From a virus, in the IMG/VR virus record IMGVR_UViG_3300048573_000442: 64,000 nucleotides of DNA. One strand, given 5' to 3'. A program made the position numbers and the translations under genes. Shown piece by piece: positions 8,558-42,059 of the stretch. The notes below the pieces were generated by a model. The model searched no databases, had not been told where the DNA came from, and was given only the letters and a program-made list of their open reading frames with translations. Numbering within the stretch: position 1 is the stretch's first letter; the number at the start of each line of letters is the position of its first letter.

Positions 8558-9406
8558 TTATTTCATGTGTTCCGAAAGGTCTTGCCAACTTTTAATTTCG
8601 GGATTAGTTTCTACCAGCTTACGCATTTTGTCCCACACGTTTTGCGGGATAACAATTGCGCCGCCGTCAAACCATACTTCCTGATGTTTCTCTGAATGTC
8701 TAAGAGTTGCTGGAGTACACGCATGCATTTGCAGTTTAGAAGGTGAGTATGCGTCTAAAATTGTTTCTAAAAAATGTTTACGGAAATCGTCGTTCTGCAA
8801 CAGTTCCGAATAATCACTTTGTTGTATTCGTTCGTATGCTTCGCTATCTACATCGCGTATTTGCACATCGAACTGTTCCAGCGATTCAAATGGGTCAGTT
8901 CCTGTGTCCAGTCCTGTATTCAGACCTGTCTCTACAAAGGCAGCCAAATAATCATTCATTTCATTAATTGGTTCCAAATTTCCAAAAAGATCAATAATCT
9001 TTTCCCAGATGTCAAGATCGCCGACTTCTCCGATTTTTGCGTTTTTAACCGGGAGCACAATGTATCTCTCATCGCCAAAACCCTTAGCGTAGGCTAAATT
9101 TGTAGTGCATATCATTGATTGACTTCGCTTAGGAAAATCTTTCATCTCTGGGTGATTATCGAAAATGGTTGTGTACCAATTGGATGTATTTTGGCTTTTG
9201 CGTTTTGTCTTTGTCAAATCAACATAGGAAAAACCTAAACCAGCTCTCATGCCCCGATAGAATGGCTGCTGTTCTTTGAGCATCCAGAATAAATCTGGGC
9301 AATGTTCGTTCAAGTAAAAGGTGATAGGACGAGTAGTAAGCGGTTCAAACACCTGTTTAAGTGAACCTTCTGCTTTTGCTTCTAAGAATGTTTTAAATGT
9401 TTTCAT
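8558..9406 (-). CDS. putative ADP-ribosyltransferase-like protein (R-S-E type), capsid-targeting-like leader
   Basis: MKTFKTFLEA; FYRGM, SMICTT..YAKGFG, QEVWF motifs. Confidence 0.55.
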   Translation of the reverse strand: MKTFKTFLEAKAEGSLKQVFEPLTTRPITFYLNEHCPDLFWMLKEQQPFYRGMRAGLGFSYVDLTKTKRKSQNTSNWYTTIFDNHPEMKDFPKRSQSMICTTNLAYAKGFGDERYIVLPVKNAKIGEVGDLDIWEKIIDLFGNLEPINEMNDYLAAFVETGLNTGLDTGTDPFESLEQFDVQIRDVDSEAYERIQQSDYSELLQNDDFRKHFLETILDAYSPSKLQMHACTPATLRHSEKHQEVWFDGGAIVIPQNVWDKMRKLVETNPEIKSWQDLSEHMK

Positions 9407-10247
9407 TTTTCATAGCTTCCGATAAATCTTGCCAATTTCTAATTCGTTTTTTGCTTGATCTATACATACTTCTCATTTTGTTCCATTCGTCTAATGGAAT
9501 AATAATGGCACCAGTATCAAACCACACCTCATGCCCTATATAAGTCAGTTCTTCGATTTCGCCAAATGCGGACCCATCAATCCGCAGCACTTTCGGCGAA
9601 TACGCCTTCAAAATTGATTCCAAGAACAAATTTGTAAATTCGGTCTTCTCTAATAGGGACGAATATTTGCTGTTTTTAAGTCTTTGAAAAACTTGGCTAT
9701 TTACATCTTTTATTTGGCGGTCAAATTCCTGCAGAAGCCCAAACGAGCATTTTTCTGTTTTTAGTCCACATTGAATGATTCCGGAAAAGAAATCATTCAT
9801 TGTTTTTATTTCTACTTCATCCCCAAAAATTTTAATCCAAAGGTCCCAAATGTCCGACACGTAAATTTCTGCTACTTTAGCATTTTTAACTGGCAGGATA
9901 GCATATACCTGACTTCCAAATCCATGTGCATAATCGAAATCGGTGGTACAAATCATAGACTCGCTTCTTTTCGGGAGATGACTCATTTCAGGATGATTGT
10001 CAAATATTTCCGTGTACCAATTAGAAGAGTTTTGGCTTTTACGTTTTGTCCCTGTCAAATCAACAAATGAAACACTTAGACCTGATCTCATGCCACGGTA
10101 CAGAACTGCTTTCTCCGTCAGCGCCCAGAACGTATCGGGGCAATACTTATTTAGGTAGTAGGCAGCTGGATGTTCCGTAAGGGGCTGATACACTAGCGAA
10201 GCAGAACCTTCTGCTTTTGCTTCTAGGAATGTTTTAAACGTTTTCAT
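9393..10247 (-). CDS. putative ART-like paralog
   Basis: MKTFKTFLEA; LYRGM, SMICTT..YAHGFG, HEVWF. Confidence 0.55.
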   Translation of the reverse strand: MKTFKTFLEAKAEGSASLVYQPLTEHPAAYYLNKYCPDTFWALTEKAVLYRGMRSGLSVSFVDLTGTKRKSQNSSNWYTEIFDNHPEMSHLPKRSESMICTTDFDYAHGFGSQVYAILPVKNAKVAEIYVSDIWDLWIKIFGDEVEIKTMNDFFSGIIQCGLKTEKCSFGLLQEFDRQIKDVNSQVFQRLKNSKYSSLLEKTEFTNLFLESILKAYSPKVLRIDGSAFGEIEELTYIGHEVWFDTGAIIIPLDEWNKMRSMYRSSKKRIRNWQDLSEAMKNENI

Positions 10248-10825
10248 AGTACGGTTCCTTTAACAATTGAATTAATTGCGTTTATAACAGTTGAATGTTG
10301 AACAACTTCAAAATGGTTTGTCGCTAATAGCAATTCATCCGTTGGCTTTACGCATCTTTGGGATTTTACTGATACAACTCCATCATTAGCATTAGCCATA
10401 AACGGCGATCCTCCGCCAGTAGTTACTACATTTAGCCAACGGCATGGAGGAATTATATTTCTCGAGTATGCAACTGAATTGCTATAAGGTGCTAAATCTT
10501 TCATGACTAGCAATTTTGGAAATGCATAACGTAAAAAGGCAGCAGCGTTATGCCCGCCGAACGGTGTTGATATCGTAATAATTCCGACAACATTTGGGTC
10601 TTCGCAGGCGATACGATGTGCCAAAATTCCACCCAAACTATGTGCAACAATAAAGTATTTTTGGGAAAGTTCTTCATGCTTAATAGCGTTATGCACGCTG
10701 TCGATTGATTGCGTGCTGTCGTATTCAGCAACAATTGGAATATGATCTTGTATCTGGGAAATAATGTGATTAAACACAATTCCAGAGCTATTAAATCCGT
10801 GAATGTAAAGAATTGTGGGTTTCAT
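10244..10825 (-). CDS. alpha/beta hydrolase (lipase/esterase-like)
   Basis: YIHGF oxyanion loop, AHSLGG nucleophile elbow, ISTPFGG, NDGVV, NHF. Confidence 0.85.
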   Translation of the reverse strand: MKPTILYIHGFNSSGIVFNHIISQIQDHIPIVAEYDSTQSIDSVHNAIKHEELSQKYFIVAHSLGGILAHRIACEDPNVVGIITISTPFGGHNAAAFLRYAFPKLLVMKDLAPYSNSVAYSRNIIPPCRWLNVVTTGGGSPFMANANDGVVSVKSQRCVKPTDELLLATNHFEVVQHSTVINAINSIVKGTVL

Positions 10826-11072
10826 TTAGGATGTTATGTTCGGGTATTGTTAATTTGCCAGCAGAGATTAGATCTCTTCTAATGACTATTAGTCTAGTCA
10901 ATTCTTTAGACAAATGGGATATTTGATCTGAAGTTGATTGGCGATTATATTTTTGAACGTATTTGTTAATCGCATCTTGAGTCATATAGTTAATGACATC
11001 GGAGTAATGATTTATCCGTTCGCTATCAACCACAAAAGCGGTTTTAACTTTTTCAGTAATAATCTTTGACAT
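10791..11072 (-). CDS. hypothetical protein
   Basis: 93-aa ORF overlapping both neighbours in a dense operon. Confidence 0.55.
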   Translation of the reverse strand: MSKIITEKVKTAFVVDSERINHYSDVINYMTQDAINKYVQKYNRQSTSDQISHLSKELTRLIVIRRDLISAGKLTIPEHNILNETHNSLHSRI

Positions 11073-11835
11073 GTTTCTGTAAATCTTGCCAATCGTCTAT
11101 ATTGATAATGACTGCGCCTTTATCAAACCAAACTTCCCCCTGAATTATTTTCGAGGATTCAAGTGTTGCGGTAGTTTTTGCCAGTAGGCCAGTTTTTCTA
11201 GGAGAATATGCATCAAATAATTCTTTAAGAAAATCGCTTGAAATGACACGTTTATATTTTTCGGCAAAACGCAATCTTTCAATAATTTCACCGTTTTTAT
11301 TTTTTAGGGCTTCATCGAATTTTACCAATGCATTAAAACAGGATTCATCTTCTTCATCATAATCAAGCAGGTTTTTTAAAAAATAATTTGCGTCGATCAG
11401 TGAAAGCGATTTCCCGAATAGGGTTGTCCTAAGATCCCACATGTCCTGTTCGCCAACTAAACCTATTTTTGAACCGTTTACAGGAATCACTGCAAATACT
11501 GATCCAAACGCACTTGCATAACCTTTAGATGTGGAGCAAATTATAGATTTGCTACGTTTGGGAAAGTCCTGCATTTCGGGGTGATTATCAAAAATTTCAG
11601 TATAAAAATTATTGGTGTTTTGGCTTTTCCTGGCCGTCCTTGCCAAATTGACAAAAGCAGGAGGATGATCCCATTGTAGCTTCCCGAATCCCCGATAAAA
11701 TGGTTTATCTTGCTCGATCATCCATAAAGAATCAGAACAATGCCTTTTTAGAAATTCGTGTATGTGATCAATTGGTTCAAATACCTGTTTAGGCGAATCT
11801 TCCGCTTTTGCTTCTAAGAAAGTTTTAAATTTCAT
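11053..11835 (-). CDS. putative ART-like paralog
   Basis: MKFKTFLEA; FYRGF, IICSTS..YASAFG, QGEVWF. Confidence 0.55.
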   Translation of the reverse strand: MKFKTFLEAKAEDSPKQVFEPIDHIHEFLKRHCSDSLWMIEQDKPFYRGFGKLQWDHPPAFVNLARTARKSQNTNNFYTEIFDNHPEMQDFPKRSKSIICSTSKGYASAFGSVFAVIPVNGSKIGLVGEQDMWDLRTTLFGKSLSLIDANYFLKNLLDYDEEDESCFNALVKFDEALKNKNGEIIERLRFAEKYKRVISSDFLKELFDAYSPRKTGLLAKTTATLESSKIIQGEVWFDKGAVIINIDDWQDLQKHVKDYY

Positions 11836-12808
11836 TTTTCAATTTCTCACTGATAAAGTGGGCGACAGATTTAGTCACTAAAATCACAGGACCGCCAATC
11901 CATAATTCTGTCGTACAGTGAAGGTCAAATAAACTAGAGGGCATATTAGCCGTAGTAAAAACTGTATGCTCTGTTGCCTCCGCAGAATATGCTTCCCAAA
12001 TATGATCCAAGAAATGATCCAAGCATTCCGTCGGTGCATTATTAAAAACACTCATGAAAAGCGCAACTGCCGGTTTATTCCTATCCTTCAGTAGTCTGTC
12101 GAATTCTTGAAAACTTTCAAGCGTCTGTTTCAATTTTAAAGCTTCAAACAAATGATTAAAGTGTTCGATATTCCGGTGGGTCCCGAAAAGATTGATTCGG
12201 GTTTGCCACATATCATCATTATTCACTGCACCCATTTTTACTCCATTAAATGGAATAACAACAATATCCTCTCCTTTTGCAGTACTTCCATAACCACTTG
12301 CAATTTTCGGACATGTAGTTGCTATGAAAGAGGCGCTGCGTTTGGGGAAATGGGCCCTTTTTGGATTAGCATCCAAAAGCATATTATAGAAGTTGCCAGC
12401 GCTAATGCTCTTCCTAGAAGTCAACGTCGGATCTGAAACAACTGCACCTGTTGCTAATAGATCGGCCTTCGGGCTTTGGCCGGAAATGCCTCGCCATATA
12501 AACTTTGCGTCCTTTAGAAACGGGACAAAATCTGACGCCTTTTGGCGAATGAGATCTAAGGTTTCATCAAGGGGTTTAGGTTCATAAACAGGCTTTGATT
12601 CCTTTAAGAACTCTGAGAATCTTAAACCTTCTTTTAAGCCCATCATTCGTTTAGTTATTGCCATTCTAAGTGCCCAATGTCTAGGATCATTTTTATCATA
12701 GTCGTATTCAGAACTGATAATTTCTTCAGCTTTATCCCAAAGATGTTCTGCTCTATCAAGAGGTATTTTTGCTTTTTTAGCTAAATGTTTTAGTGCAGTA
12801 AGTGGCAT
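11825..12808 (-). CDS. putative ART-like paralog with extra N-terminal helical domain
   Basis: About 60-aa basic N-domain, internal LRFSEFLKE, then IWRGI, FIATT..IASGYG, TELWI. Confidence 0.5.
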   Translation of the reverse strand: MPLTALKHLAKKAKIPLDRAEHLWDKAEEIISSEYDYDKNDPRHWALRMAITKRMMGLKEGLRFSEFLKESKPVYEPKPLDETLDLIRQKASDFVPFLKDAKFIWRGISGQSPKADLLATGAVVSDPTLTSRKSISAGNFYNMLLDANPKRAHFPKRSASFIATTCPKIASGYGSTAKGEDIVVIPFNGVKMGAVNNDDMWQTRINLFGTHRNIEHFNHLFEALKLKQTLESFQEFDRLLKDRNKPAVALFMSVFNNAPTECLDHFLDHIWEAYSAEATEHTVFTTANMPSSLFDLHCTTELWIGGPVILVTKSVAHFISEKLKNEI

Positions 12809-12809
12809 T

Positions 12810-13466
12810 TTAAAAGTCAGGAAATTGTGGAGGTGGGGCGAAATTTGACGTGTATCTTGCTATTCCACTAGTAAACCTGAAATCGTCAATATATCCAGTA
12901 AAATATTTTGAAACAGATGTATATGCACCAAGTTGGAAATCTCCAGTTGCAAAATCAGTGTTTGCAACTGATGCCACCAAAATGCCATTTTGGTACAATC
13001 GAGTATTTGGGGAATCCAAAACGACCGCAACATGAACCCATTCATTTATTGGCAATGGAGCATTTGCTGTCGCCAAAACGGGAACGACATTTCGTTTGCC
13101 TATAACAAGATTTCCGCTTATTGTTTCCAATGTCAGCCCGCTACCGCTAACAGAAAAAAGAATCCCGACGTCAGAGGCAACGGTTTTATAAAGCCAGAAT
13201 TCAATCGTAAACTTGCTACCAAATAATGACATCGTATTTGACGGTCTAGTCAAATACGATGAGCCGTTTAAATATAGGGACGCTGCGCCAAATTGTTTTT
13301 CTGAGCTACTAATAACTGGGGCCCCAATGCCCGTCCAAACTCCACTTGCCGAATCACCAAAGTTTGAATCAAAGCGTAATAGGCTGATTACGTTAGTCCA
13401 AAATGGATCTGGTGGTTGTGCAGTTGATTGGTAAATTGCGCGGATGAGAACTGAAATGTCTAGCAT
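12810..13466 (-). CDS. LamG/concanavalin A-like lectin domain protein
   Basis: DPFWTNVISLLRFD, FTIEFW, EWVHVAVV, FTGYIDDFRFTSGIARYTSNF; start moved to the internal Met at 13466. Confidence 0.8.
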   Translation of the reverse strand: MLDISVLIRAIYQSTAQPPDPFWTNVISLLRFDSNFGDSASGVWTGIGAPVISSSEKQFGAASLYLNGSSYLTRPSNTMSLFGSKFTIEFWLYKTVASDVGILFSVSGSGLTLETISGNLVIGKRNVVPVLATANAPLPINEWVHVAVVLDSPNTRLYQNGILVASVANTDFATGDFQLGAYTSVSKYFTGYIDDFRFTSGIARYTSNFAPPPQFPDF

Positions 13467-13473
13467 AATTAGT

Positions 13474-13956
13474 TTATTCTTTATTAAAGTCGTCCCAAAT
13501 TTCTTTATCTGCTTTTCTAGCAGGCCCGCCAACAATAAACGAATTCACTCGAGCCATCGCCCATTGTGCTTGGGCAACACCCGGTCTATGCCCAGTTCTC
13601 CAAGCTGCAGAACCCTTATTGAACACTCGCCGTAAAATAGATACGGGAATTCCTGTTTTTTCAGACTTATTCTTGAGCGCAACGTCAATATTTGAAGACT
13701 CGCCAAACAGCTCTTCATACTTTTCAGTATGTTCGCTTTTTGGTATAGATTTTCCTGCCGACTTCAACTGTTTCTTATATTTCCTATCAGCGGTCCAGTT
13801 GTCAGGATAAGCTTTTGGATCTTTATGGTCAAGACGTTTAAACTTATCAATTTCTTTTGACATCTCTTTTTTCAGGGGAGGTTTGTTTTTTGCCCCCTTA
13901 AAATCCAAATACTTTGGATTTGTCTCAGAAATGAACTGTTTAAACGTTATCGTCAT
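13474..13956 (-). CDS. conserved phage protein (DUF5824-like), capsid-targeting-like leader
   Basis: MTITFKQFISE; ALKNKSEKTGIP..L..VFNKG.AAWRTGHRPG...QWA.ARVNSF motif recalled from T4-like phages and giant viruses. Confidence 0.6.
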   Translation of the reverse strand: MTITFKQFISETNPKYLDFKGAKNKPPLKKEMSKEIDKFKRLDHKDPKAYPDNWTADRKYKKQLKSAGKSIPKSEHTEKYEELFGESSNIDVALKNKSEKTGIPVSILRRVFNKGSAAWRTGHRPGVAQAQWAMARVNSFIVGGPARKADKEIWDDFNKE

Positions 13957-13958
13957 GA

Positions 13959-14213
13959 TTATTTTGCTGGCTTAACAACGTCTTTAAACACTACGCCTTC
14001 AGAACCATCCCATTCGCCGACGCCGATAGTCTCCTTGCGCTTATACGGCTTAGTTCCAATGAAAGCATTGCAGATGTCCTGGTCTCCATCAAACCAAGCA
14101 CCTGGCTGATATTTGCGAACGGCAGTTTTCCATGAACTATAAGTCGTGTAAACAGTTTCCCCCATATGGTTCTTTGCTTCTTTAAGATTTACTAGTTGTT
14201 TTAGTAATTGCAT
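13959..14213 (-). CDS. hypothetical protein
   Basis: MQLLKQLVNLKE leader; GATAAATA upstream. Confidence 0.7.
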   Translation of the reverse strand: MQLLKQLVNLKEAKNHMGETVYTTYSSWKTAVRKYQPGAWFDGDQDICNAFIGTKPYKRKETIGVGEWDGSEGVVFKDVVKPAK

Positions 14214-14242
14214 TTTTGTGCCTCTATTGGTTAAATGTATAT

Positions 14243-14539
14243 TTATCTCTTGTCGTAATTAACGTGTATTACTTTTGCTTTAATTACGCCAAGGCCCTGA
14301 AGTATATGTTTTTTCAACCGCAATGTCAACTTTTCAGACAGGTCTTTTTGAAAGCCTAGATCCCTAGGTCTGTCTGCACAATCCGTCCTGAACTCTATAA
14401 CAGTTTGTGGCCCCTCATCTAATAAATGGATGCTAAAGATCTTACAAGCAATGAGTTCTTCTTCAGCAATGTGGTGCAGCATGTTTTCCCATTTTTTAAG
14501 GTGTTCTTCACGCTTAAGGAATTCTTTAAATGTCTTCAT
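14243..14539 (-). CDS. hypothetical protein
   Basis: MKTFKEFLKREE leader; ATGA-coupled to upstream gene. Confidence 0.7.
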   Translation of the reverse strand: MKTFKEFLKREEHLKKWENMLHHIAEEELIACKIFSIHLLDEGPQTVIEFRTDCADRPRDLGFQKDLSEKLTLRLKKHILQGLGVIKAKVIHVNYDKR

Positions 14540-15186
14540 AAAATTTCTGCCAATCTTGGTTTAATGACATCATAAAATAGATTGCTTAAAGTATCTATTT
14601 TGTAATACTGCTTGCATTTCAAATGAATTTCATTGCCGTTATCGATGCATTCTTCAAGCTCTTCATTTACATTCCATCTAGCGTGTGAAAATTTTTTAAC
14701 TAGCATGTCTGCTGCCATAGTCTGACGCTGATCATAGTTGTATTGGTTTTCTTTATCAGCTGCGAATATTTTGCCAGATAAATAGGCTGAAGAGCCGTAT
14801 GCGTCTTTAAATGCGTCCTTGCCCGTATCAGCATTACAAACCCATTGAAATTCCCCAATTGGGAAAATAGCAAATACCTTTCCGTATTGTCTAGCATCGT
14901 TTTGTTGACCAGTAACAAACATCCAATTTCGAATAGGCTCGCCGACTAAATCAACAAAAAAATCATTCATTTTATCATGCAAGTACGTGCTTGAATCCCT
15001 AGGCCCGCCACGTAGCCTAAAATCCCTGATCTCCCAATCGGCAGACCCTCCAGATTCAGAGCCGCGATACATCAATTTGTTTCCGCCGGTTCCTTTTAGT
15101 TGCTTAAATAAAAATGAGCAGTCTTCTTCAAATCGTTTAAGATCAAAAGATTTTTGTTCGTTTAGGAAAGTTTTAAATGTTTTCAT
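14536..15186 (-). CDS. putative ART-like paralog
   Basis: Start moved to MKTFKTFLNE (15186); MYRGS, MFVTG...ARQYG, NEIHL. Confidence 0.45.
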   Translation of the reverse strand: MKTFKTFLNEQKSFDLKRFEEDCSFLFKQLKGTGGNKLMYRGSESGGSADWEIRDFRLRGGPRDSSTYLHDKMNDFFVDLVGEPIRNWMFVTGQQNDARQYGKVFAIFPIGEFQWVCNADTGKDAFKDAYGSSAYLSGKIFAADKENQYNYDQRQTMAADMLVKKFSHARWNVNEELEECIDNGNEIHLKCKQYYKIDTLSNLFYDVIKPRLAEIL

Positions 15187-15880
15187 ATTTAACCCATGGG
15201 TCGTTGATGACAATAGTTCCGTCTTCAGCAATCATAAAATTGCTGCTGTGTAAATCGTTTTGGAACCCGTTCTTGCGCCCAATTTGGACGACATCGAATA
15301 TAGTAGAGGCCAATTTAACTAATTGCTGTTGGCCCATATGGAGTATGAGGTACTCCAAACCTGATGAAATCTCTAGTGCTGTTCTCGTAAAAAACATTTT
15401 GCCTTTTCTTGCAAACAGCGACTGATTATCAATTTCTAAGGCAGCTGGATGTTCTATATAGGTCGTAACAGCTTTAAGATATTCGATCTTTTTGTTGTTA
15501 AATGCGTCTACCTCTGTTGATAAGAACCCAAGTGCGATGCCAGTGTGTTCTGATATAGAACCCATCTCAAAAAGGCGTTCAGATTTTGCTATTAGCACCT
15601 TGGTGCCAGTCTCTGAGTTAACAATTGTTTCCGGGGCGCCAATATCAGGGATAAATTGGTTATTTTTATTTGCCAAACAGTATTTTAGCCACTTGACAAA
15701 TACGCTTGACCTCGAATCGTTTAGTGGACCGATCGCCAACAACACTTCATGTTTTTCATTCATCCAGACCGTCTTATCATATCCACTAGCTTCCATGAAA
15801 TAGCCGCGATCCCTCATTAGATGAAACAACCAAGAACTATCATCAGGTGAAAAATCAGATTCAAATAGGCGATGTTTCAT
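15173..15880 (-). CDS. protein kinase-like (T7 gp0.7-like) 1
   Basis: Start MKHRLFE (ATGA-coupled); ASGYDK, YC..NKNNQFIPDI, DLHSSNFM, INDPW. Confidence 0.75.
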   Translation of the reverse strand: MKHRLFESDFSPDDSSWLFHLMRDRGYFMEASGYDKTVWMNEKHEVLLAIGPLNDSRSSVFVKWLKYCLANKNNQFIPDIGAPETIVNSETGTKVLIAKSERLFEMGSISEHTGIALGFLSTEVDAFNNKKIEYLKAVTTYIEHPAALEIDNQSLFARKGKMFFTRTALEISSGLEYLILHMGQQQLVKLASTIFDVVQIGRKNGFQNDLHSSNFMIAEDGTIVINDPWVKYENI

Positions 15881-16605
15881 TTGTACCATCCATCGGCTTT
15901 CTTTACAAGTACCTCTAATGGGATGATATTTGGCGACAAATATTTCTCAGCCTCTTCTCGCATCTGTTTTAAATATCTTTTCCCTACAGGATTTTTCAAA
16001 GGCTCACTAAAAAACCCCTGAACAGATTTAAAAATTTTCAAGATGGCTTTGTCGTCAAGGGCGCCATCATTTTCAACCTGCTTAAAAAAATCAACTTTCG
16101 CCTGTAGAAACTTTGCGTTTTCCAAATTGACTTCACTGACTTTGCGAATAAATTCTGCGTCAACTTTTCGTCCAGAAATATCAGTTCGAGATTTTGCCCT
16201 TTTAAGAGATGTTTCCAAGCTTGCGTGAACAAACACTACTCCTACATCATATCCTATAGATTCAAGAATGCCTATGCGATGCAATATTTGGGAAACATTA
16301 TTCGAAGTGCTATCAACAAACAGTGGCAGCATCGAATTCATATAGCCTGTTAAAGATTTTTTTGTGATTTTAATCGATGAATCTCTTAATTCGGGCCACG
16401 TTTCAGAGGATACTTCCTTATCAAGTTTAAAGGCCATGAATTCGGTTGCAATGTCAGTATTGACTACTTTTGGGGAAATTTGCCCCCTTAGGTTCCTGAC
16501 TGTGTAACTCTTGCCGGCACCTGGCAAGCCAATCACGAAAACAGCTTTAAGAATGCCAGCATCATTAATGCCTTCTGTTATGTAGGTTTTGAAATTTGTT
16601 GTCAT
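15877..16605 (-). CDS. P-loop kinase (AAA_33/zeta-toxin-like)
   Basis: VFVIGLPGAGKS Walker A, VNTD, FVDST, R..SR lid; MTTNFKTYITE leader. Confidence 0.75.
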   Translation of the reverse strand: MTTNFKTYITEGINDAGILKAVFVIGLPGAGKSYTVRNLRGQISPKVVNTDIATEFMAFKLDKEVSSETWPELRDSSIKITKKSLTGYMNSMLPLFVDSTSNNVSQILHRIGILESIGYDVGVVFVHASLETSLKRAKSRTDISGRKVDAEFIRKVSEVNLENAKFLQAKVDFFKQVENDGALDDKAILKIFKSVQGFFSEPLKNPVGKRYLKQMREEAEKYLSPNIIPLEVLVKKADGWYK

Positions 16606-16609
16606 AATT

Positions 16610-17290
16610 TTAAAAGGATGCCCATGGATCGGTGATAACTAAAGTGCCGTCTGAAGCAATCATAAAGTTACCGGAATGTAAATCTAGAAAGCCGCTGCTA
16701 GGAGTTGCATTAATAATATCTATTAAAGTTCCTAGCAAAAAGTCAAAATCCTCGACGCTTAACACCAATAGCGCCATGCTTTCGGTAATATCCCCACTTG
16801 CTTCTAATCTAGCTTTTGCGTCCGCAATGACTTTTGATTTTAGGTCTTTTTGTAAAATGCTAGTAGAGCCAATAGCACTAGTGCAAGCTTTCACAAGTTC
16901 ATGAATTGCTTCTCGTATCTGGCTGAGTTCGGAAGAGACTTCAAACAAGCGTTCGATGTTGGCGACGATAAACTTCTCACCGCTTATAGTAAGTGGTTTT
17001 GAAAAACTAATATTTGGTAAATGGGGATTGGATGAATGTTGAAAACAAAAACTTACCCACTTTTTGAAATTGGCTGTTTCCCTATAGCTTTCGTCATGTT
17101 GGATTATTTTGACGTTATGTGTTTTTGGATTAACAAATGCTGCTTTAAAAGCGCCAGCTCTCAAAAATTTGTAACCTAAGCCTTTCATATGTTCTAAAAG
17201 AATGCTGCTTCTTCTAGATTCATCATTAAAATCCTGTTCTTCTGTGCTGATGGACTCGACCAAATATTTTTTGAAATTGCGCGCCATCAT
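16610..17290 (-). CDS. protein kinase-like (T7 gp0.7-like) 2
   Basis: MARNFKKYLVE; RAGAFKAAF, VK, FC.QHSSNPHLPNI, DLHSGNFM, ITDPW. Confidence 0.8.
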   Translation of the reverse strand: MMARNFKKYLVESISTEEQDFNDESRRSSILLEHMKGLGYKFLRAGAFKAAFVNPKTHNVKIIQHDESYRETANFKKWVSFCFQHSSNPHLPNISFSKPLTISGEKFIVANIERLFEVSSELSQIREAIHELVKACTSAIGSTSILQKDLKSKVIADAKARLEASGDITESMALLVLSVEDFDFLLGTLIDIINATPSSGFLDLHSGNFMIASDGTLVITDPWASF

Positions 17291-17985
17291 TATGCCCATG
17301 GGTCAGTTATGACTATTGTTCCGTCTTCGCCAAGCATGAAATTTCCTGGATGCAAATCGAGAATTGAGTTACTAGGTGAAAAATCAATAATGTCTATTAT
17401 GGTCCCTATCAAAGAATCGATATCTTCAACACTTAATAGCAGTAATGAATGAGCATCATTTTCAAATTCGTCATTGGAGCCAAAATTTTCAAGAGAGCTT
17501 TTTATTTCAGCTATTAATTCGTCTCGGGGTTTATTTTTGCCGCCGCTCGAAGCTCTTGATGTTTCGCATAAATCCGCAATTTCAGTCAACGCGAAACCGA
17601 TAGAAACAATACTAGAACTGTCTATCGAAAATAGTCTTTCAATGGTGGCAATCTGAAACACATGCTTCGTGCCATCTTCACCTCCTATTTTTAACGGGCG
17701 ATCAAGTTTTATAATCGGGAGATGCGGGTTGTTCTTATGTTGTTTGCAAAAATCTATCCAGCGAGTAAAAGTACTAAATGAAGCTGGATTATTCTTGTAC
17801 AAAATTATTTTTGTCGAGCTAGAATCCATATACGCAGCTTTTTCAACCCCACTGCCGAGAAATTTGAACCCGTTTAGAACCATATATTTGTGCAAAGCAA
17901 AAGCACGTTCGCGATCAGCGAAACTCCCCGATCTCAAATACTTGGGGGCTTCATGGCTTTCGGCTAGAAAATGTTTAAAGTTCAT
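17290..17985 (-). CDS. protein kinase-like (T7 gp0.7-like) 3
   Basis: Start moved to MNFKHFLAE; LGSGVEKAAY, FCKQHKNNPHLP, DLHPGNFM, ITDPW. Confidence 0.8.
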   Translation of the reverse strand: MNFKHFLAESHEAPKYLRSGSFADRERAFALHKYMVLNGFKFLGSGVEKAAYMDSSSTKIILYKNNPASFSTFTRWIDFCKQHKNNPHLPIIKLDRPLKIGGEDGTKHVFQIATIERLFSIDSSSIVSIGFALTEIADLCETSRASSGGKNKPRDELIAEIKSSLENFGSNDEFENDAHSLLLLSVEDIDSLIGTIIDIIDFSPSNSILDLHPGNFMLGEDGTIVITDPWA

Positions 17986-18028
17986 TTTAATGGGAATGTA
18001 ACATTCAGTTAAGTTTGCGCTATCCACT

Positions 18029-18928
18029 TTATTCCTCACGCGATTTGATTTCAATGACAACAGCTTTAAACAATTCTATCGGTACAAGGAAAGCCTTCCC
18101 AGAAAACCAGCACTCCCTACTCTCCGGCAGCTTATCCCCATAATTCGCAACTGACAGATTGAGCGAATCAGGCGTGAATACTGCATCAGCTATCGCCTGA
18201 GTTAGGTTGCTGTGATTCTGTGTGATAAACTCACGAATGTACGTAACGCTTACATTCGGGAAAGTGCGGACAAACGCATCTATTACATCGTCAATAGGGG
18301 CTTTAGCAATAGTCTCTTGAAATTGATGCAAACTGACAACGCTTTCGTATCTATTGGCCAAAGGCAAAGTATGTGTTCCTACTCTATTCACAAACACAAA
18401 AAGTTTGTCACTAAGGTAATCTAACGGCACTTCGCGGCCGAAGAAGTTAACATCGCAATTTAGGAAATCGCGCTTATCACAAAATGTAATTAACGAACTT
18501 GAATTTTTCCCAACCGGGACCACCACTGAAACCGCTCCGTACGAACTAGCAGATGATAGAGAAGTAGAGCAGATGAGAGATTTTGAACGATCTGGAATTC
18601 CTGCCTGATTTAACGGCCCTGAAATTGCCATCATCAATTGATACACGTTGTCAGTATCTTTCGACGTTCTTATGCCAGTAGATGAATCAATATACGATAG
18701 TTTCGGCGCTCTTGGGCTGCTGAGGTCCCTTGAGCTTTTTGAACTCCCTCGATATAAAATGCCGCCATTTTTTAATGCTGATAAGAATCCTGGGCAATGC
18801 TTAAGCAAAGCGTCAGTTGCACTCACGATATCCTTTTCATTGAAGTGTTCAGACTTATTCAATAAGGTCCTTTTTCTCCATGCCTTCACTACGGCTTCAT
18901 TCAGTGCAAGTATTTCTGCCAATTTCAT
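18029..18928 (-). CDS. putative ART-like paralog
   Basis: MKLAEILALNE; LYRGS, LICSTS..ASSYG, RECWF. Confidence 0.55.
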   Translation of the reverse strand: MKLAEILALNEAVVKAWRKRTLLNKSEHFNEKDIVSATDALLKHCPGFLSALKNGGILYRGSSKSSRDLSSPRAPKLSYIDSSTGIRTSKDTDNVYQLMMAISGPLNQAGIPDRSKSLICSTSLSSASSYGAVSVVVPVGKNSSSLITFCDKRDFLNCDVNFFGREVPLDYLSDKLFVFVNRVGTHTLPLANRYESVVSLHQFQETIAKAPIDDVIDAFVRTFPNVSVTYIREFITQNHSNLTQAIADAVFTPDSLNLSVANYGDKLPESRECWFSGKAFLVPIELFKAVVIEIKSREE

Positions 18929-18931
18929 AAT

Positions 18932-19378
18932 TCAATCCAGCTGTTTAATGTTGCCGTCTACTGTTATCATGCGTAATATTTCTTCACGGTTTGCAACGAG
19001 AATATTGTTAGTAGTTTTCCCGCCATTGGCATATGGAACAAAACTTTGATTTGCACGCTTTCTATCAGTCTTTGCTTTTGATCTGCTATTTACAGCGCTG
19101 AGTGCAATGTTGAGATAATTTGCAGCTACCTCGGCATTTCGAGCAGCATATCTTGGCTCAATGACTTCTAAATAATCCTGCTGGGTTTTAAATGCATCTA
19201 GCGCCGCAGTATAAATTTCATCAATTCTTTGCTCTATAAGAACATCATCGGCATCTTTGTGATCCACTGGCGGCTCTGTTGCAGAAAGTTCCTGCTTGGG
19301 CTGTTCAACCATGCCATATTCTTCTTCAATGTCAAACTCTTCACTCATGTTAAATGCTTGTTCCAATGGATTTCTCAT
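18932..19378 (-). CDS. possible terminase small subunit (gp16-like)
   Basis: 148 aa, helical; R.AEVAA.. segment and C-terminal TTNNILV..REEILRM resemble T4-like gp16 tails. Confidence 0.45.
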   Translation of the reverse strand: MRNPLEQAFNMSEEFDIEEEYGMVEQPKQELSATEPPVDHKDADDVLIEQRIDEIYTAALDAFKTQQDYLEVIEPRYAARNAEVAANYLNIALSAVNSRSKAKTDRKRANQSFVPYANGGKTTNNILVANREEILRMITVDGNIKQLD

Positions 19379-19857
19379 TTTCGTGTTCCTTTAGTTCCTC
19401 TAGACTTAATAGCACCTTTAGTTTGTCTCGTAGACGGCCGTTTTTGTGCTTGTGCAAACAATTCGCGTTCAGTGACCAGCCTAAATCGAGCGCCAATGGC
19501 TTTTGCAAGATTTTCTGCAGCTTGCCACTTCGCAGCGTTTCTGATGAGCATAAGCTTATCGTAATTTGATTTAGCTTCTGACATCATTGCTTCTTTTAAT
19601 GGCTTAATCTCAACAATTTCTAAAGTGTTGTTAGTATACTGGACTAAAAAGTCTGGCCAATAATGTTTGACTTGCTTAGTAATTGGGTCCAAATATGTTA
19701 TATTTAGATTTTTCGGTTCACTGAACCATTTAGACACATGAATAGAATTATCTAGTGCCCGCATATAAGCTATTTCCCAACTAGAGCGGGCAACAATTCG
19801 CCTTGCATCCCCTGCATATTTCTTTGGGTTAGTTGGAACAAAAACGAGATTTGCCAT
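19375..19857 (-). CDS. gp4: head completion nuclease gp4-like (TnsA N-terminal fold), paralog 2
   Basis: PKKY.G, RSSWE, Y.DP..K..HYWPDF, EIKP. Confidence 0.8.
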   Translation of the reverse strand: MANLVFVPTNPKKYAGDARRIVARSSWEIAYMRALDNSIHVSKWFSEPKNLNITYLDPITKQVKHYWPDFLVQYTNNTLEIVEIKPLKEAMMSEAKSNYDKLMLIRNAAKWQAAENLAKAIGARFRLVTERELFAQAQKRPSTRQTKGAIKSRGTKGTRK

Positions 19858-19859
19858 AA

Positions 19860-20300
19860 TTATTTCTTAGCCTTTTTAACGCCTTGGTGGAAAATGCTTT
19901 TTTCGGTAAGCACGCGAAATTTCATTCCTCGCTCTTGGCAATAAATTGCTGCGCTCTTCCATTTAGCTTCATTGACAACCAATGCATCCTTTGATCTCTG
20001 GCTTTTAGCAAATTGTTTGTCAGATTCATGAAGTGGTTTAACTTCTACCAATTCTTTAATTAGATTTCCGTCTTTGTCCATGTATTCGACAAAGAAATCC
20101 GGAAAATAGCGGTGCACTTTACTATCGAGTGGACTCAAATAAGGGATAACTATTTCTTCTGAACCCCATTTTAAGACATCTGGGCGACTGTCAAAATACT
20201 TCATGCATGCAACTTCCCAAGAAGAACGGGCAAAAATAGCATTTGGATCCCCAACGTATTTGGTGGGGTTTTTAGGTATGAAACGAGCGTTAAGCGCCAT
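19860..20300 (-). CDS. gp4: head completion nuclease gp4-like, paralog 1
   Basis: PKNPTKYVGD, RSSWE, WGSEEI.IPY.SPLD.KVHRYFPDF, EVKP, NEAKW. Confidence 0.9.
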   Translation of the reverse strand: MALNARFIPKNPTKYVGDPNAIFARSSWEVACMKYFDSRPDVLKWGSEEIVIPYLSPLDSKVHRYFPDFFVEYMDKDGNLIKELVEVKPLHESDKQFAKSQRSKDALVVNEAKWKSAAIYCQERGMKFRVLTEKSIFHQGVKKAKK

Positions 20301-21582
20301 TGTCGTACGGCACTGAAAGGTCTGTTACTGGGGCAGCATTGTCAGTAATAGCGGGTTTAGTAGGAAGCGCAAAACCCTGTACTACGCCAGTACCAATAGA
20401 ATTAATCGTCCTATTTGCTGCAGCGCCTAATGAACCCGAAACCGAACCTATTGCCCCATTTAAAGCGCGACCGACTGCATTATTCCCGACTACCTTTCGT
20501 AATGCTCCACTAATAGCGCTCTGAACTGCTCGTTCGCCTTGGCGTGCAAGAATGTCAACAAATGGGTTGCGCTCATTTCCTGGAGAAGTTTTTGCGCCCC
20601 TAACAATATACGCTGAACCTTCGTTATATCCGGACAATATGTCTATGATCATTGGCGCTGAAGGGGATCTATGTTGTCTTGCAGTGCTAGAATCCTTAGC
20701 AGCAGAAAGGCCTGTTTCTATATAAAGCGTATCGAAATCAAAGGTCCCAGTAATCAAATTGAAATTGGTGTCCTCATGATCATGATCGCCAAGTGATAAT
20801 TTGGAAATCCGCGGATTCGTAAAAACAAAGTCGTTTACTTTTACTGGGTCATGTGAACCCATCTCCATGTAATATTGATGGATTATGATTTTTGCAAGAA
20901 CGTTATTGTTCCCGCCATACAGCGCGCCTCTGTTTGATGAGTCGAGTTCATTAGGGGAATTACTAAATGAAAAACCATAGTCTCCTAAATTTGTTGAAGC
21001 CTCATGTTCCCTTCTAGATATTGGCACATGCAGCATGCGATAAAGATTTGCAAAATCCAGCGATTTGTTAGAAACGTCATCATAGAAAGTAAATGAAATT
21101 TCATCATGTGTTATGCTTTTTAGAACCTTAGTTCTAAAATTATACATATTAACCATTTCATAATCAAACGATACCGACGGAAGATCTATCTGCTTAACAG
21201 AATAATCTAACCCGCGCATTAACTCATCAACAGTTTTGCCACCAAGCGTCGATGCATATTCGGCAATGCCCGAATTGAAAATAAATGAAACTTTAAAAAG
21301 GAACTTTGTTCTTGGAATATTTGATGCAGTTGAATTCCTGCCAGTCGAGACATTTTGGGCTGCGTATCTAGTAGAATCCCAAACAAGGGGGGTTATTTGG
21401 GCAATTGCGTCAGCAGCTGAAACTGCATCGCTATCGCCTGTTAATTCGGTTGCGCCAGTAGATTTAAAAATCCCAGAAAGCGCGCGATCGGCAACACCTT
21501 GGACTGCAGCTCCAAACTGTTTAAAGGCTTCTGCTTCTAAAGCAACACCCGTAGATTTGATAATGTTTTTCACATCGCGCAT
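20290..21582 (-). CDS. tail-tube-fold baseplate/tube initiator (gp54/gp48-like)
   Basis: IDLPSVSFDYE..NMYN...ISFTFYDD tube-type pattern; adjacent to tube gene. Confidence 0.55.
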   Translation of the reverse strand: MRDVKNIIKSTGVALEAEAFKQFGAAVQGVADRALSGIFKSTGATELTGDSDAVSAADAIAQITPLVWDSTRYAAQNVSTGRNSTASNIPRTKFLFKVSFIFNSGIAEYASTLGGKTVDELMRGLDYSVKQIDLPSVSFDYEMVNMYNFRTKVLKSITHDEISFTFYDDVSNKSLDFANLYRMLHVPISRREHEASTNLGDYGFSFSNSPNELDSSNRGALYGGNNNVLAKIIIHQYYMEMGSHDPVKVNDFVFTNPRISKLSLGDHDHEDTNFNLITGTFDFDTLYIETGLSAAKDSSTARQHRSPSAPMIIDILSGYNEGSAYIVRGAKTSPGNERNPFVDILARQGERAVQSAISGALRKVVGNNAVGRALNGAIGSVSGSLGAAANRTINSIGTGVVQGFALPTKPAITDNAAPVTDLSVPYDNGA

Positions 21583-21607
21583 AATAATTCCTAAGACTAA
21601 TAAGAAG

Positions 21608-21615
21608 TATTTATG
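21608..21615 (-). promoter_or_regulatory. late promoter (CATAAATA)
   Basis: NATAAATA 26 nt upstream of 21582. Confidence 0.6.
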
Positions 21616-21653
21616 GCAGACGTAACAATTTGGGCATCCTAACCGGAAATGAA

Positions 21654-21681
21654 TAAAGGCTACTTTAAAAGTAGCCTTTAT
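21654..21681. terminator. hairpin terminator after tail tube gene
   Basis: taaaggctactt-taa-aagtagccttta inverted repeat. Confidence 0.6.
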
Positions 21682-21719
21682 CTTTAACTGATAACGAGTT
21701 GAACCCGTTATCTTACAGC

Positions 21720-22310
21720 TTAAAGATTACCGCCCAATGCAGTACCATAGCCAGCACCAAGCAGTTCTTGACGTGCATGGTCATAACGAAGTTGCAAACT
21801 AATTGTTGCAGCAGTTGAATCAGAGTAATCCATATCGCCATAATCAACCGATGCGATAAAGCAGCCTTCAAGTTTCCAACGCTCAACTACGCCTTCGCCA
21901 CCGTCTAGGGCCTCAAGGATAGTTCCGAATTTGTAATCAGAACCCGTAGCAGCTTGAGCTAGCCACTCGCCAGGAAGATCTCCGCCGATCAAACGCTGTT
22001 GAGTTTCCAGCTGACCCTGAATGGCACCTGAAGCCAAACCGGTAATATCGTCTTCAACCGTTAATGAAATCGGTTCGAAAGTGTGCTTTCCAGCAACATA
22101 GGCAGTGGAGTTATAGCGGTGCATCGTCACTTGTTCAAATGACAGGTTCGGACGCTGAACGTTAGTTGCCTGACGAGTAAGTTCGCGTGAAGATGCGCCG
22201 GGTACCAAACGCGCTAAGCCCACAAAGGTTACTTGCCAGCGGTGCTTTAGCTTAGGGTGAAGTATGCCGGAACCAGCGGCAGGAATACCAATTTGTGATA
22301 ATGTCGACAT
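21720..22310 (-). CDS. gp19: tail tube protein
   Basis: RWQVTF, RPNLSFE, YVAGKHTFEPISLTVEDD, W.LEGCF, LRYD; close to sheath; own late promoter at 22369-22376. Confidence 0.85.
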   Translation of the reverse strand: MSTLSQIGIPAAGSGILHPKLKHRWQVTFVGLARLVPGASSRELTRQATNVQRPNLSFEQVTMHRYNSTAYVAGKHTFEPISLTVEDDITGLASGAIQGQLETQQRLIGGDLPGEWLAQAATGSDYKFGTILEALDGGEGVVERWKLEGCFIASVDYGDMDYSDSTAATISLQLRYDHARQELLGAGYGTALGGNL

Positions 22311-22403
22311 TTTTTCTCCTTGAATAAGTAATGCAATCGCCCGAGTGGCAAATGTTTAAATCATTGCCTATTTATGGGAACAATCAAAAAACACACAAAC
22401 CTC

Positions 22404-23216
22404 TTAATTTAGGCTATCTAAGAATGAACTATACGCTGTTGTAACAGGAACTCCTGACTTTGCAATCAAGTGAAACGGGACTAAAATATATCCATCAGAA
22501 TCATAGAAGAATATTTCGTTGCGCGACGTAATTGCTTCGGCAAAGCTTTCGTTGTTCTTATAATAATCTAGAGCAAACAGCTTTATCGCCTTAATAAGAT
22601 CAGCGTGCTTTAGCTTTAAAATATTTCTATCTGAGCATTTACGAGCAGCTGCTTCTGTATGTTGTTCGGCATTTCCGTCGAGATTGTGAACCCAAACAGC
22701 TGATGAAACACTTCCTATAATCGTGAAAAGATTTTCAAAGAACTCGATTAGTTCAAAAGCCGTAATAGGGAATTTACTACGCGGCAACAAATCCCTAATA
22801 CTTTCGGCAAAAAACTCAAGGCCTCCGTCTTCGCCAACATAAGAATCTTGTAGTTTTTTAGACCATGCCCACTGAAAATTTCCACATGGGAAGCAAAATG
22901 CTAAATGTTTTGCGTACTTAGAGGCCTCTGTCAAGGAACCGACTGCAAAAAAGGATCGTTGGCGAATATCAGGTATGCCATATGCAGCGTCAATTGCGGC
23001 GTTGAATGCGAAACTGAATTCTTGGCTTGAATCTCTTGGCGGACGGTATTTGGGATGCGGAATTATTAAAGCTTTTTCAACAGGCCTACTTACAGATCTG
23101 AACAATGCTTTGCCATCAGACAGCGCTAAAAATGGTTGACAGTGTTGCTTAATCAGCTCTGAGGCGTTTTTAAGTAGGTCGTCCTGCTCTGTCAAAAATT
23201 GCCTAAACTGGGTCAT
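22404..23216 (-). CDS. putative ART-like paralog (divergent)
   Basis: MTQFRQFLTE; LFRS, IRQRSFFAVGS..EASKY, NEIFF. Confidence 0.45.
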   Translation of the reverse strand: MTQFRQFLTEQDDLLKNASELIKQHCQPFLALSDGKALFRSVSRPVEKALIIPHPKYRPPRDSSQEFSFAFNAAIDAAYGIPDIRQRSFFAVGSLTEASKYAKHLAFCFPCGNFQWAWSKKLQDSYVGEDGGLEFFAESIRDLLPRSKFPITAFELIEFFENLFTIIGSVSSAVWVHNLDGNAEQHTEAAARKCSDRNILKLKHADLIKAIKLFALDYYKNNESFAEAITSRNEIFFYDSDGYILVPFHLIAKSGVPVTTAYSSFLDSLN

Positions 23217-23566
23217 TTTAAATTTTCGATTTTATAACGGGCTTTAAAAGCTGTTGCAATAACTGCATCCCACTCATTTTGAATAAACGAATCTTGTGGG
23301 ATTTCGGTTTTTGCTGTTTCTGCCCATTCAGTAAAGTTTTTAATAAAAGCTTCTGCGTCGTTAGTAGGAAAACCATTTGAATCGGGAGTCGTATCCTGCA
23401 TGACCCCATATTTTCCCTGGTACATCTCTGCTAAGCCATCGATAAGTTCTATTAGCGCATCGTAAAAATCATTAAGGGCCACGTGAACCGCAAATGATTT
23501 CGTTTTAAGGTGCAGAGCGTGAGAAATATCTCTAGCTGCAAAAAGATTGGCAATGATTTTGTCCAT
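23213..23566 (-). CDS. ferritin-like four-helix protein (DUF5856-like)
   Basis: SH.LHL.T.SFA.H.AL..FYD.L..L.D..AE.YQG.YG; late promoter at 23591-23598. Confidence 0.7.
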   Translation of the reverse strand: MDKIIANLFAARDISHALHLKTKSFAVHVALNDFYDALIELIDGLAEMYQGKYGVMQDTTPDSNGFPTNDAEAFIKNFTEWAETAKTEIPQDSFIQNEWDAVIATAFKARYKIENLK

Positions 23567-23647
23567 GTTTTTCCTGTTAGCAACACAACATATTTATCCA
23601 CTTAAAGGGAAGGTTCTTTTAGAACCTTCCCTGTCCAGCGAAACTTG

Positions 23648-37243: not shown

Positions 37244-37301
37244 AATTGATCCTTCATATGGATTATAAAGCCGTATTTATATAGGAGCTTTTAATCAAGT
37301 G

Positions 37302-41444: not shown

Positions 41445-42059
41445 TCATTTGTAAGAAAGTAAAGAATTCAAGAAATTTTGAATTTCGGTTTTAAGGTATT
41501 TTTGAGCCTTAGGATCATGAGCAACAGCTTCTGCCAAACTCATGATTTTAGGGTTTTCAACTGATTCGCGGACAACGTCGGGATAACAACCAGGGCCAGA
41601 TGGCGTTGCAACAACGTCGACTGTCAGAAATGAGAAATCTTCTACGATACCTTCGCTTGTTACATTACCTGTTCCACGACTTGAAACTCCGAGTTTAACT
41701 CCTCCTTCAATCAAGCTCTTAACGATTAAACCGGATGGAGTATCCAAAATTTTGCATTTGCCGACGGCATTATTTCCGTCCATCCAAGCTTCAGTAATAA
41801 TGTGAGAAACGTTTTTCAAATCAATTGACAAACCATCAGGGTGGTTTAATTCGCCCATGACGTAAGTGCCTTCTTTGATACCGGCATTAATCACGCTAAC
41901 GGCTCGTTCAATTTGTGCTTTTGGATAGACTCGTTGATTAAGATTTCGCTGTTCGGCAGCCATCATGCGGCCAACAAGAAATAGATTCCTTGCTTGATCG
42001 CGTGATTCAAGAAGTTGTGCCTGTGATGGAGCCAAATGCTCGATAAGAAGTTGGTTCAT
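41445..42059 (-). CDS. gp21: prohead protease
   Basis: N.N.RVYP, GELNHP, VSH.I, ILDTP.G.IV, LGVSSRG.G, VATPS; TATAAATA at 42090-42097. Confidence 0.95.
   Translation of the reverse strand: MNQLLIEHLAPSQAQLLESRDQARNLFLVGRMMAAEQRNLNQRVYPKAQIERAVSVINAGIKEGTYVMGELNHPDGLSIDLKNVSHIITEAWMDGNNAVGKCKILDTPSGLIVKSLIEGGVKLGVSSRGTGNVTSEGIVEDFSFLTVDVVATPSGPGCYPDVVRESVENPKIMSLAEAVAHDPKAQKYLKTEIQNFLNSLLSYK

Follow-up and report, generated by a model that had tools for sequence, protein, structure and literature searches.

We analyzed a 64,000-nucleotide (nt) stretch of viral DNA (IMG/VR record IMGVR_UViG_3300048573_000442, hereafter the window), in which 7 minus-strand open reading frames (ORFs) between positions 8558 and 23216 had been put forward, in a preliminary description, as a family of paralogs resembling ADP-ribosyltransferases (ARTs). 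The source is an uncultured T4-like giant phage that carries 7 diverged copies. Paralog 1 (8558..9406, 282 residues) starts with the leader MKTFKTFLEAKAE, carries the motifs FYRG, KRSQSMICTT, and HQEVWF, and matches phrog_12810 (E 9.8e-33), while paralog 2 (9393..10247, 284 residues), which overlaps it by 14 nt, has the same leader followed by LYRG, KRSESMICTT, and GHEVWF. Paralog 3 (11053..11835, 260 residues) served as the reference for the first structural model and for residue numbering; its leader, residues 1-13, is encoded at 11797-11835, and the codons of interest lie at 11692-11694 (R48), 11554-11556 (R94), 11527-11535 (S101-T102-S103), and 11134-11136 (E234). Paralog 4 (11825..12808, 327 residues) has an N-terminal extension of about 60 residues, then an internal leader-like LRFSEFLKES, and the motifs IWRG, KRSASFIATT, and TTELWI. 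Paralog 5 (14536..15186, 216 residues; MYRG, IRNWMFVTG, and GNEIHL; phrog_11975, E 1.4e-17) belongs to a divergent subfamily with a short insert and was the reference for the second model. Its start is likely the ATG at 15186 rather than the TTG at 15231; read from this ATG, it begins with MKTFKTFLNE and overlaps the upstream gene by 14 nt, the same geometry as in the pair formed by paralogs 1 and 2. Paralog 6 (18029..18928, 299 residues) has the variant N-terminus MKLAEILALNE together with LYRG, DRSKSLICSTS, and SRECWF, and paralog 7 (22404..23216, 270 residues), the other member of the divergent subfamily, has the leader MTQFRQFLTE, the motifs LFRS, IRQRSFFAVGS, and RNEIFF, and a match to phrog_11975 (E 6.7e-17), with its gene placed between those for the tail sheath and the tail tube.

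Sequence comparison indicates that the 7 minus-strand ORFs are true paralogs, as had been proposed, and their coordinates and strand were confirmed. In PHROG profile searches, 5 of the 7 ORFs matched phrog_12810 (E 7e-19 to 1e-32) and 6 matched phrog_11975; because 4 ORFs matched both, these 2 families, neither of which has an assigned function, can be linked. A profile built only from the divergent subfamily to which paralogs 5 and 7 belong (A3) retrieved paralogs 1, 2, and 6 at E 4e-7 to 9e-5, and its hhalign comparison with paralog 3 gave a probability of 93.9% (E 1.6e-7). An hmmsearch over all ORFs of the window returned precisely the 7 paralogs and no further member. Pfam and NCBIfam scans of the 7 proteins and 55 family members gave no meaningful match, and megablast of the region against GenBank phages gave none.

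Conservation was counted in a 205-member alignment, numbered after paralog 3, whose members are otherwise 15-50% identical. The arginine of the (F/Y/W)R(G/S) motif, R48, was R in 195 members, H in 5, and K in 5, and was followed by G49 in 188 of 205. R94 of the P-K-R-S motif was present in all 205 members, S97 in 189, T102 in 140, and Y/F110 in 200, with A107 also among the conserved motif residues; E234 was found in 188 members, and 6 more had D. The R, S, and E positions singled out in the preliminary description were thus borne out, and its list lacked R69 (203/205), P118 (205/205), and D131 (203/205), which are near-invariant. Putative active-site residues are kept in 92-100% of the members, and near-invariant polar residues across proteins that have diverged this far look like an active site.

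We predicted AlphaFold models of 2 paralogs from separate alignments, paralog 3 from 55 sequences (mean predicted local distance difference test [pLDDT] 91.0) and paralog 5 from 20 sequences (pLDDT 90.9), and compared both exhaustively with 48,161 chains using VIA, together with second-look runs; the tool warns that a Z-score below 8 can reflect a common arrangement only, and all Z-scores below are to be read with this limit. The top match of both models was BC2332 of Bacillus cereus (PDB 2aua), which we take to be a member of DUF2441, with Z 5.9 for model 1 and 5.7 for model 2 over 130-131 aligned residues. Rifampin ART Arr came second (Z 5.0 and 5.1) and diphtheria toxin third (Z 4.4 and 4.0) in both searches, and lower matches of model 1 included TreX, PARP16, Tpt1, tankyrases, PARP1-4, exotoxin A, cholix, AvrPphF ORF2, CteC, and DarT. 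In the second-look runs, model 1 matched 2aua_A at Z 6.6, with 8 of 8 listed entries ART-fold or ART-like, and the top 10 rows for model 2 included BC2332, Arr-2, PARP12, CopC, and OspC3. The ESM Atlas, with its own model, placed the family nearest to an annotated DUF2441 cluster (features 0.82, structure TM 0.55). Cyclic-nucleotide-binding domains appeared in the model 1 list at Z 2.6-3.6 and were judged a generic beta-sandwich likeness because they were missing from the model 2 list, and matches of a profile search of PDB sequences to spectrin, Fes, and parvalbumin fell on the helical insert only and were rejected as spurious.

BC2332-like proteins are classified in the ADP-ribosylation superfamily (SCOP d.166.1.6; PMC3000352), BC2332 matched templates of diphtheria toxin, exotoxin A, and cholix in its active-site geometry (PMC3024214), and the Pfam ART clan includes DUF2441 (PMC7955679). 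BC2332 and DUF2441, both of the ART superfamily or clan, resemble the phage family in having no known function, and BC2332 was the best match of both models (Z 5.7-6.6 over about 130 of 199-210 residues, root-mean-square deviation 3.5-4.1); unlike them, the phage family adds a leader, N-terminal helices, and a helical insert, and identity in the structural alignment is 8-10%. The resemblance is at the level of fold and embedding only: PF10386 (DUF2441) gave no match at E up to 1 among the 55 members scanned, and its profile found none in Atu_ph07 or T4. Arr and diphtheria toxin, of the H-Y-E clade, share the core fold over just 78-88 aligned residues, and their H-Y-D/E triad differs from that of the phage family, which has R at strand 1, replaced by H only among some members of one subfamily, and S-T-S at strand 2, where no Tyr is conserved. 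Both models are thus best matched by ART-fold structures, and the ART-like fold that had been anticipated is borne out as a resemblance. The case rests on the consistent and almost exclusive return of ART folds by 2 independent models, no single score being decisive: the top whole-domain matches have the split beta-sheet ART core, all at Z below 8. We consider an ART-superfamily fold probable for the predicted structures, in a large unnamed phage family that appears divergent within the superfamily and closest to BC2332/DUF2441.

In model 1, the conserved R, S, and E fall at the positions that ARTs use, for which the general layout is [R/H]-G-[T/S], S-x-S, and x-x-E (PMC7955679). The strand 1 position reads YRG, WRG, or FRS in all 7 copies and lies in the predicted strand 46-50 of model 1 and 39-43 of model 2; several members of the divergent subfamily have YHG, WHG, or FHG with H in place of the strand 1 Arg, and this is the alternative residue that ARTs use there. 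In model 1, S97-T102 lie at strand 2 (98-101), which is followed by a helix (104-108) carrying A107; C-S-T-S, C-T-T-N, or A-T-T-C occurs in 5 of the 7 copies, and the motif is degenerate in paralogs 5 (FVTGQ) and 7 (FAVGS). At the front edge of strand 5, E234 starts strand 234-237 in model 1 and E186 stands just before strand 187-190 in model 2; the remaining model 2 equivalents (R41, F90-T92) are placed as in model 1. The unusually long spacing from S to E had been ascribed to a helical insert, and both models agree with this: the insert before the Glu strand takes up about 70 residues in model 1 (helices within 146-215) and about 40 in paralog 5. Mean identity among the 5 main paralogs is 27% in the insert vs. 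42% in the core, and by analogy the insert may correspond to the target-recognition loops that many ARTs have at this position.

The preliminary description had gone further, assigning the family to cholera-toxin-type (R-S-E) ARTs and likening it to T4 Alt, ModA, and ModB, and neither claim was upheld. Two positions ahead of the Glu, the 7 copies have H, G, Q, T, S, G, and R, with Q only once, and this position is not conserved in the family; the E/Q-x-E motif of the ARTT loop is conserved neither in the 7 copies nor in the 205-member alignment. The R-S-E label is not established because this motif is missing, 2 paralogs lack S-T-S, and the nearest folds (BC2332, Arr, diphtheria toxin, PARPs) lie on the diphtheria/PARP/Arr side; in the divergent subfamily, moreover, R and H alternate. 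AvrPphF ORF2 (Z 3.3) and CteC (Z 2.8) scored lower than BC2332, Arr, and diphtheria toxin. The matches listed did not include cholera toxin, pertussis toxin, C3, iota toxin, or VIP2, an absence that excludes nothing at such Z-scores. With the T4 enzymes, hhalign probabilities were 0.3% for Alt, 0.9% for ModB, 5.4% for ModA, and 2.2% and 0.5% for the ModA/B profile, and PF26816 (ModA/B) had no match in the Pfam scans. The best local alignments to the T4 ARTs fall repeatedly on the short YRG stretch, which is suggestive but not significant, and the 3 T4 proteins are not mutually independent. The phage lineage does share T4-type head, tail, and protease genes with T4, and the proteins share an aromatic-R-G/S in strand 1 and a late Glu with its ARTs. 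Unlike T4 Alt, however, the family lacks E-x-E and has the 40-70-residue helical insert ahead of the Glu; Alt has 682 residues and its own propeptide, whereas the window proteins have 216-327 and an internal-protein-type leader, and T4 packages one such enzyme as against 7 copies here and up to 13 in Agrobacterium phage Atu_ph07.

The leader is the best-conserved segment of the family and is disordered in both models. The pattern M(K/T).F(K/R).F(L/I).E stands at the N-terminus of 5 of the 7 copies, is internal in paralog 4, and takes a variant form in paralog 6. T4 internal proteins IPII and IPIII start with MKTYQEFIAE and IPI with MKTFKEF, to be compared with MKTFKTFL.E in window copies. In T4, proteins enter the prohead by means of a capsid targeting sequence of 10-20 residues, which the gp21 protease afterward cuts off (PMC5694885). 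The likeness to IPI, IPII, and IPIII extends from the leader (MKTFK.F(L/I).E) to an (L/I)-x-E akin to gp21 cut sites in most window copies and to an encoded gp21-type head maturation protease (41445..42059, minus strand; phrog_207, E 1.6e-55), the enzyme expected to remove the leader; portal and major capsid protein genes are also present in the window. The cargo domain, in contrast, is unrelated to the T4 internal proteins, the leader of paralog 4 follows 60 other residues, and 3 copies (paralogs 1, 2, and 3) read FLEAKAE without a clean L-x-E, which is found in paralogs 4, 5, 6, and 7. A similar leader heads neighboring kinases, a DUF5824 protein (13474-13956, minus strand; PF19141, E 9e-20; MTITFKQFISE), and an ORF of 98 residues (14243-14539, minus strand; MKTFKEFLKRE); the leader is thus a mark of unrelated cargo.

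Virion proteomics of Atu_ph07 bears on the same question. This phage carries 13 copies of the domain, 12 of them in the tandem genes gp53-gp63 (E 6e-43 to 5e-17), and its purified virions contained gp53 through gp65, each with 3-31 unique peptides (PMC6102473, Table S5), so that all 11 gp53-gp63 proteins, with their 12 domain copies, are among the virion proteins. The array thus resembles that of the window in being truly homologous, tandem, and virion-detected; it differs in that it belongs to a 490-kb phage of a different host, its proteins are annotated only as hypothetical, and in gp53 the domain forms one protein with a zeta-toxin-type kinase, for which the window has a separate gene. A strict pattern search found no MKTFK-type leader in Atu_ph07. 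The head packaging suggested earlier thus gains backing from 2 sides, the T4 internal-protein-like leader and the virion proteome of a homologous array, and on these sequence and homology grounds we regard loading of the proteins into the virion as very probable. Ejection into the host would follow by analogy with T4, and because the homologs in another phage sit inside the virion, the proteins are probably injected enzymes.

The family is large. A word-indexed search gave 52 relatives, none with a name, and HMMER, run exhaustively over 1.84 billion cluster representatives, gave 7,130 at E <=1e-3 and 1,255 at E <=1e-30. Among annotated phages, its carriers are giant T4-related myoviruses with several copies each, namely Atu_ph07, Salicola SCTP-2, Ralstonia RsoM2USA, and an uncultured 484-kb phage, and IMG/VR contigs carry arrays of about 5, 6, and 10 copies. 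Fused forms include two-copy proteins and gp53 of Atu_ph07 (778 residues), in which the domain is joined to the kinase. Many homologs of 320-334 residues share the layout of paralog 4, with the domain match beginning at residue 55, and the first 55-60 residues of paralog 4 may serve as an extended propeptide or an additional targeting module. We also noted a protein of 2,645 residues (P0122) on a 356-kb metagenomic contig, in which 5 separate stretches match the family profile and a GNAT match is weak (E 0.006) and below the cut-off; this protein may represent the family in polyvalent form. No publication or family database was found to name the family: the Atu_ph07 paper labels the array proteins hypothetical virion proteins (PMC6102473), and a comparative review of jumbo phages mentions ARTs in such phages and cites none of the Atu_ph07 array proteins (PMC7824862).

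Within 8-26 kb of the window, genes overlap or abut with few intergenic gaps. The 5 minus-strand ATAAATA motifs of this region (25541, 23591, 22369, 21608, and 14240), which resemble late promoters, all fall between genes, 25-59 nt upstream of a start; the sheath and tube genes are among those preceded in this way, and this arrangement places the paralogs in late operons. The motif at 23591..23597 stands 25 nt before the gene at 23213-23566, which paralog 7 follows with a 4-nt overlap. That at 21608..21614 stands 26 nt before the gene at 20290-21582 and heads a gap-free string running through paralog 6, 3 kinase paralogs, and paralog 5, and that at 14240..14246 stands 27 nt before the gene at 13959-14213 and heads the string with paralogs 4, 3, 2, and 1. 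The exact T4 late promoter octamer TATAAATA is absent from 8-26 kb, where each intergenic gap has the shorter ATAAATA, and present at 37274, 40304, and 42090. For this phage, N-ATAAATA appears to be the consensus of late promoters. Sigma-70 promoter and terminator scans gave results at chance level.

Several neighboring minus-strand genes were annotated. A zeta-toxin/AAA_33-type P-loop kinase (15877..16605) with the leader MTTNFKTYITE matches positions 258-465 of phrog_12810, which identifies it as the kinase to which other phages fuse the ART-like domain, as in gp53 of Atu_ph07. Three genes paralogous to one another (15173-15889, 16610-17299, and 17290-18060) alternate with the ART-like genes and match phrog_15752, the family of T7 gp0.7-type protein kinases (E 2e-7 to 2e-9); 2 of the 3 have a capsid-targeting-like leader (MARNFKKYLVE and MNFKHFLAE), and they may constitute a second packaged enzyme family. 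A small alpha/beta-hydrolase gene (10244-10825; Hydrolase_4, E 2e-6, just above the cut-off) without the MKTFK-type leader lies between paralogs 2 and 3, and a 241-residue protein (12810-13535) within the accessory gene string matches a domain of giant virion structural and baseplate-wedge proteins (phrog_24074, phrog_3545, and others; E down to 7e-29). Also on the minus strand, we identified 2 adjacent paralogs of gp4-type head-closure proteins (19375-19857 and 19860-20300; phrog_218, E 1e-34 and 1.5e-45), an HNH/homing-endonuclease-like gene inside the head gene module (35340-36845; phrog_3339, E 5e-78), and a large terminase gene (589-2580) with PHROG matches in residues 6-190 and 306-629, in which the unmatched stretch of about 115 residues may be an insertion.

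The best reading of these results, which we hold with moderate confidence, is that the 7 genes encode late-made, leader-targeted, and protease-trimmed enzymes of ART fold that are ejected with the DNA, use NAD+, and modify host macromolecules. The genes would be transcribed late, in operons shared with head-completion and tail genes, and the short T4 internal-protein-like leader would load the proteins into the prohead, where a gp21-type protease would remove it. The proteins would then leave the capsid with the DNA and enter the host, bind NAD+, most likely in a pocket that the strand 1 [R/H]-G, the strand 2 S-T-S with its helix, and the strand 5 Glu would form, and pass ADP-ribose to host macromolecules, and the variable insert ahead of the Glu, together with paralog divergence, would give differing target specificities. 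In this scheme, we infer the removal of the leader, the ejection, the use of NAD, the transfer chemistry, and the targets.

A number of results weigh against it. All structural Z-scores are below 8, and Foldseek searches of both models against the PDB gave no significant match, with OspC3/CopC and 2aua high in the lists at E 0.1-5. Neither Pfam, nor the PDB hmmsearch, nor hhalign with Alt, ModA, and ModB linked the family to an ART by sequence or profile, and BC2332 itself has no known activity. The E/Q-x-E motif is not conserved, paralogs 5 and 7 lack S-T-S, and R69, R94, and D131 have no counterpart in classical ARTs, so that a different chemistry could be at work. Finally, presence of the homologs in Atu_ph07 virions is not proof of ejection.

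In the chief alternative, the proteins would be packaged and of ART fold, and their chemistry would be another: NAD+ hydrolysis, modification of nucleic acids or small molecules as by DarT, Tpt1, and Arr, or action on NAD-derived or nucleotide immune signals, and they may act jointly with the zeta-toxin-type kinase that is fused to the domain in other phages. We judge this unlikely. In its favor, the nearest folds include Arr, a small-molecule ART, as well as Tpt1 and DarT; the invariant Arg and Asp residues outside the classical triad (R69, R94, and D131) suggest phosphate-rich ligands; the domain is fused to or adjoins a zeta-toxin/AAA_33 kinase; and the family is without the E/Q-x-E typical of ARTs acting on protein Arg, Asn, or Cys. 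Yet nothing points to a substrate, the fusion in packaged polyvalent proteins may reflect co-delivery alone, and the triad positions at strands 1, 2, and 5 suit transferases equally. Decidedly improbable is a second alternative, that of non-catalytic internal head or virion structural proteins whose ART likeness is a shared arrangement or a degenerate relic and whose conserved residues serve folding, DNA binding, or assembly. The Z-scores of just 4-6.6, the lack of a sequence link to any enzyme family, the abundance of the homologs in Atu_ph07 virions, and the mostly non-enzymatic nature of the T4 internal proteins with the same leader would all fit it, but R48, R69, R94, S97, D131, and E234 are near-invariant across the 205 members at 15-50% identity, a pattern typical of active sites, conserved residues occupy the ART triad positions, and both models retrieve ART folds and almost nothing else spanning the whole domain. 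That 7 unrelated ORFs share motifs by chance is refuted to near certainty by PHROG matches with E down to 1e-32, profile matches across the subfamilies, and secondary-structure elements in the same order in both models.

T4 Alt is the textbook example of a packaged ART, and enzymes injected from the virion act ahead of phage gene expression and are a main route for early takeover and counter-defense. A packaged phage ART is already known: Alt travels inside the capsid, is cut by gp21, and enters the host by injection together with the DNA (PMC5694885). What is new here is a separate, much larger, and tandem-expanded family with an internal-protein-type leader and atypical motifs, in which thousands of metagenomic members and a dozen virion-borne copies in cultured Atu_ph07 are annotated everywhere as hypothetical. 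An ART-type fold and a capsid-targeting leader would turn about a dozen unexplained Atu_ph07 virion proteins into a testable hypothesis, and the alternation of R with H, like the additional invariant Arg and Asp residues, may be the sign of a chemically unusual ART lineage. We tentatively propose that giant T4-related phages possess a very large unrecognized family of capsid-loaded ART-fold enzymes, diversified in tandem (7 here, 13 in Atu_ph07, and about 10 on one IMG/VR contig) as injected effectors, each paralog perhaps using NAD to modify a different host or defense target at DNA entry. In jumbo phages, this suggests, injected enzymes become diverse in much the way that secreted effectors do in bacteria.

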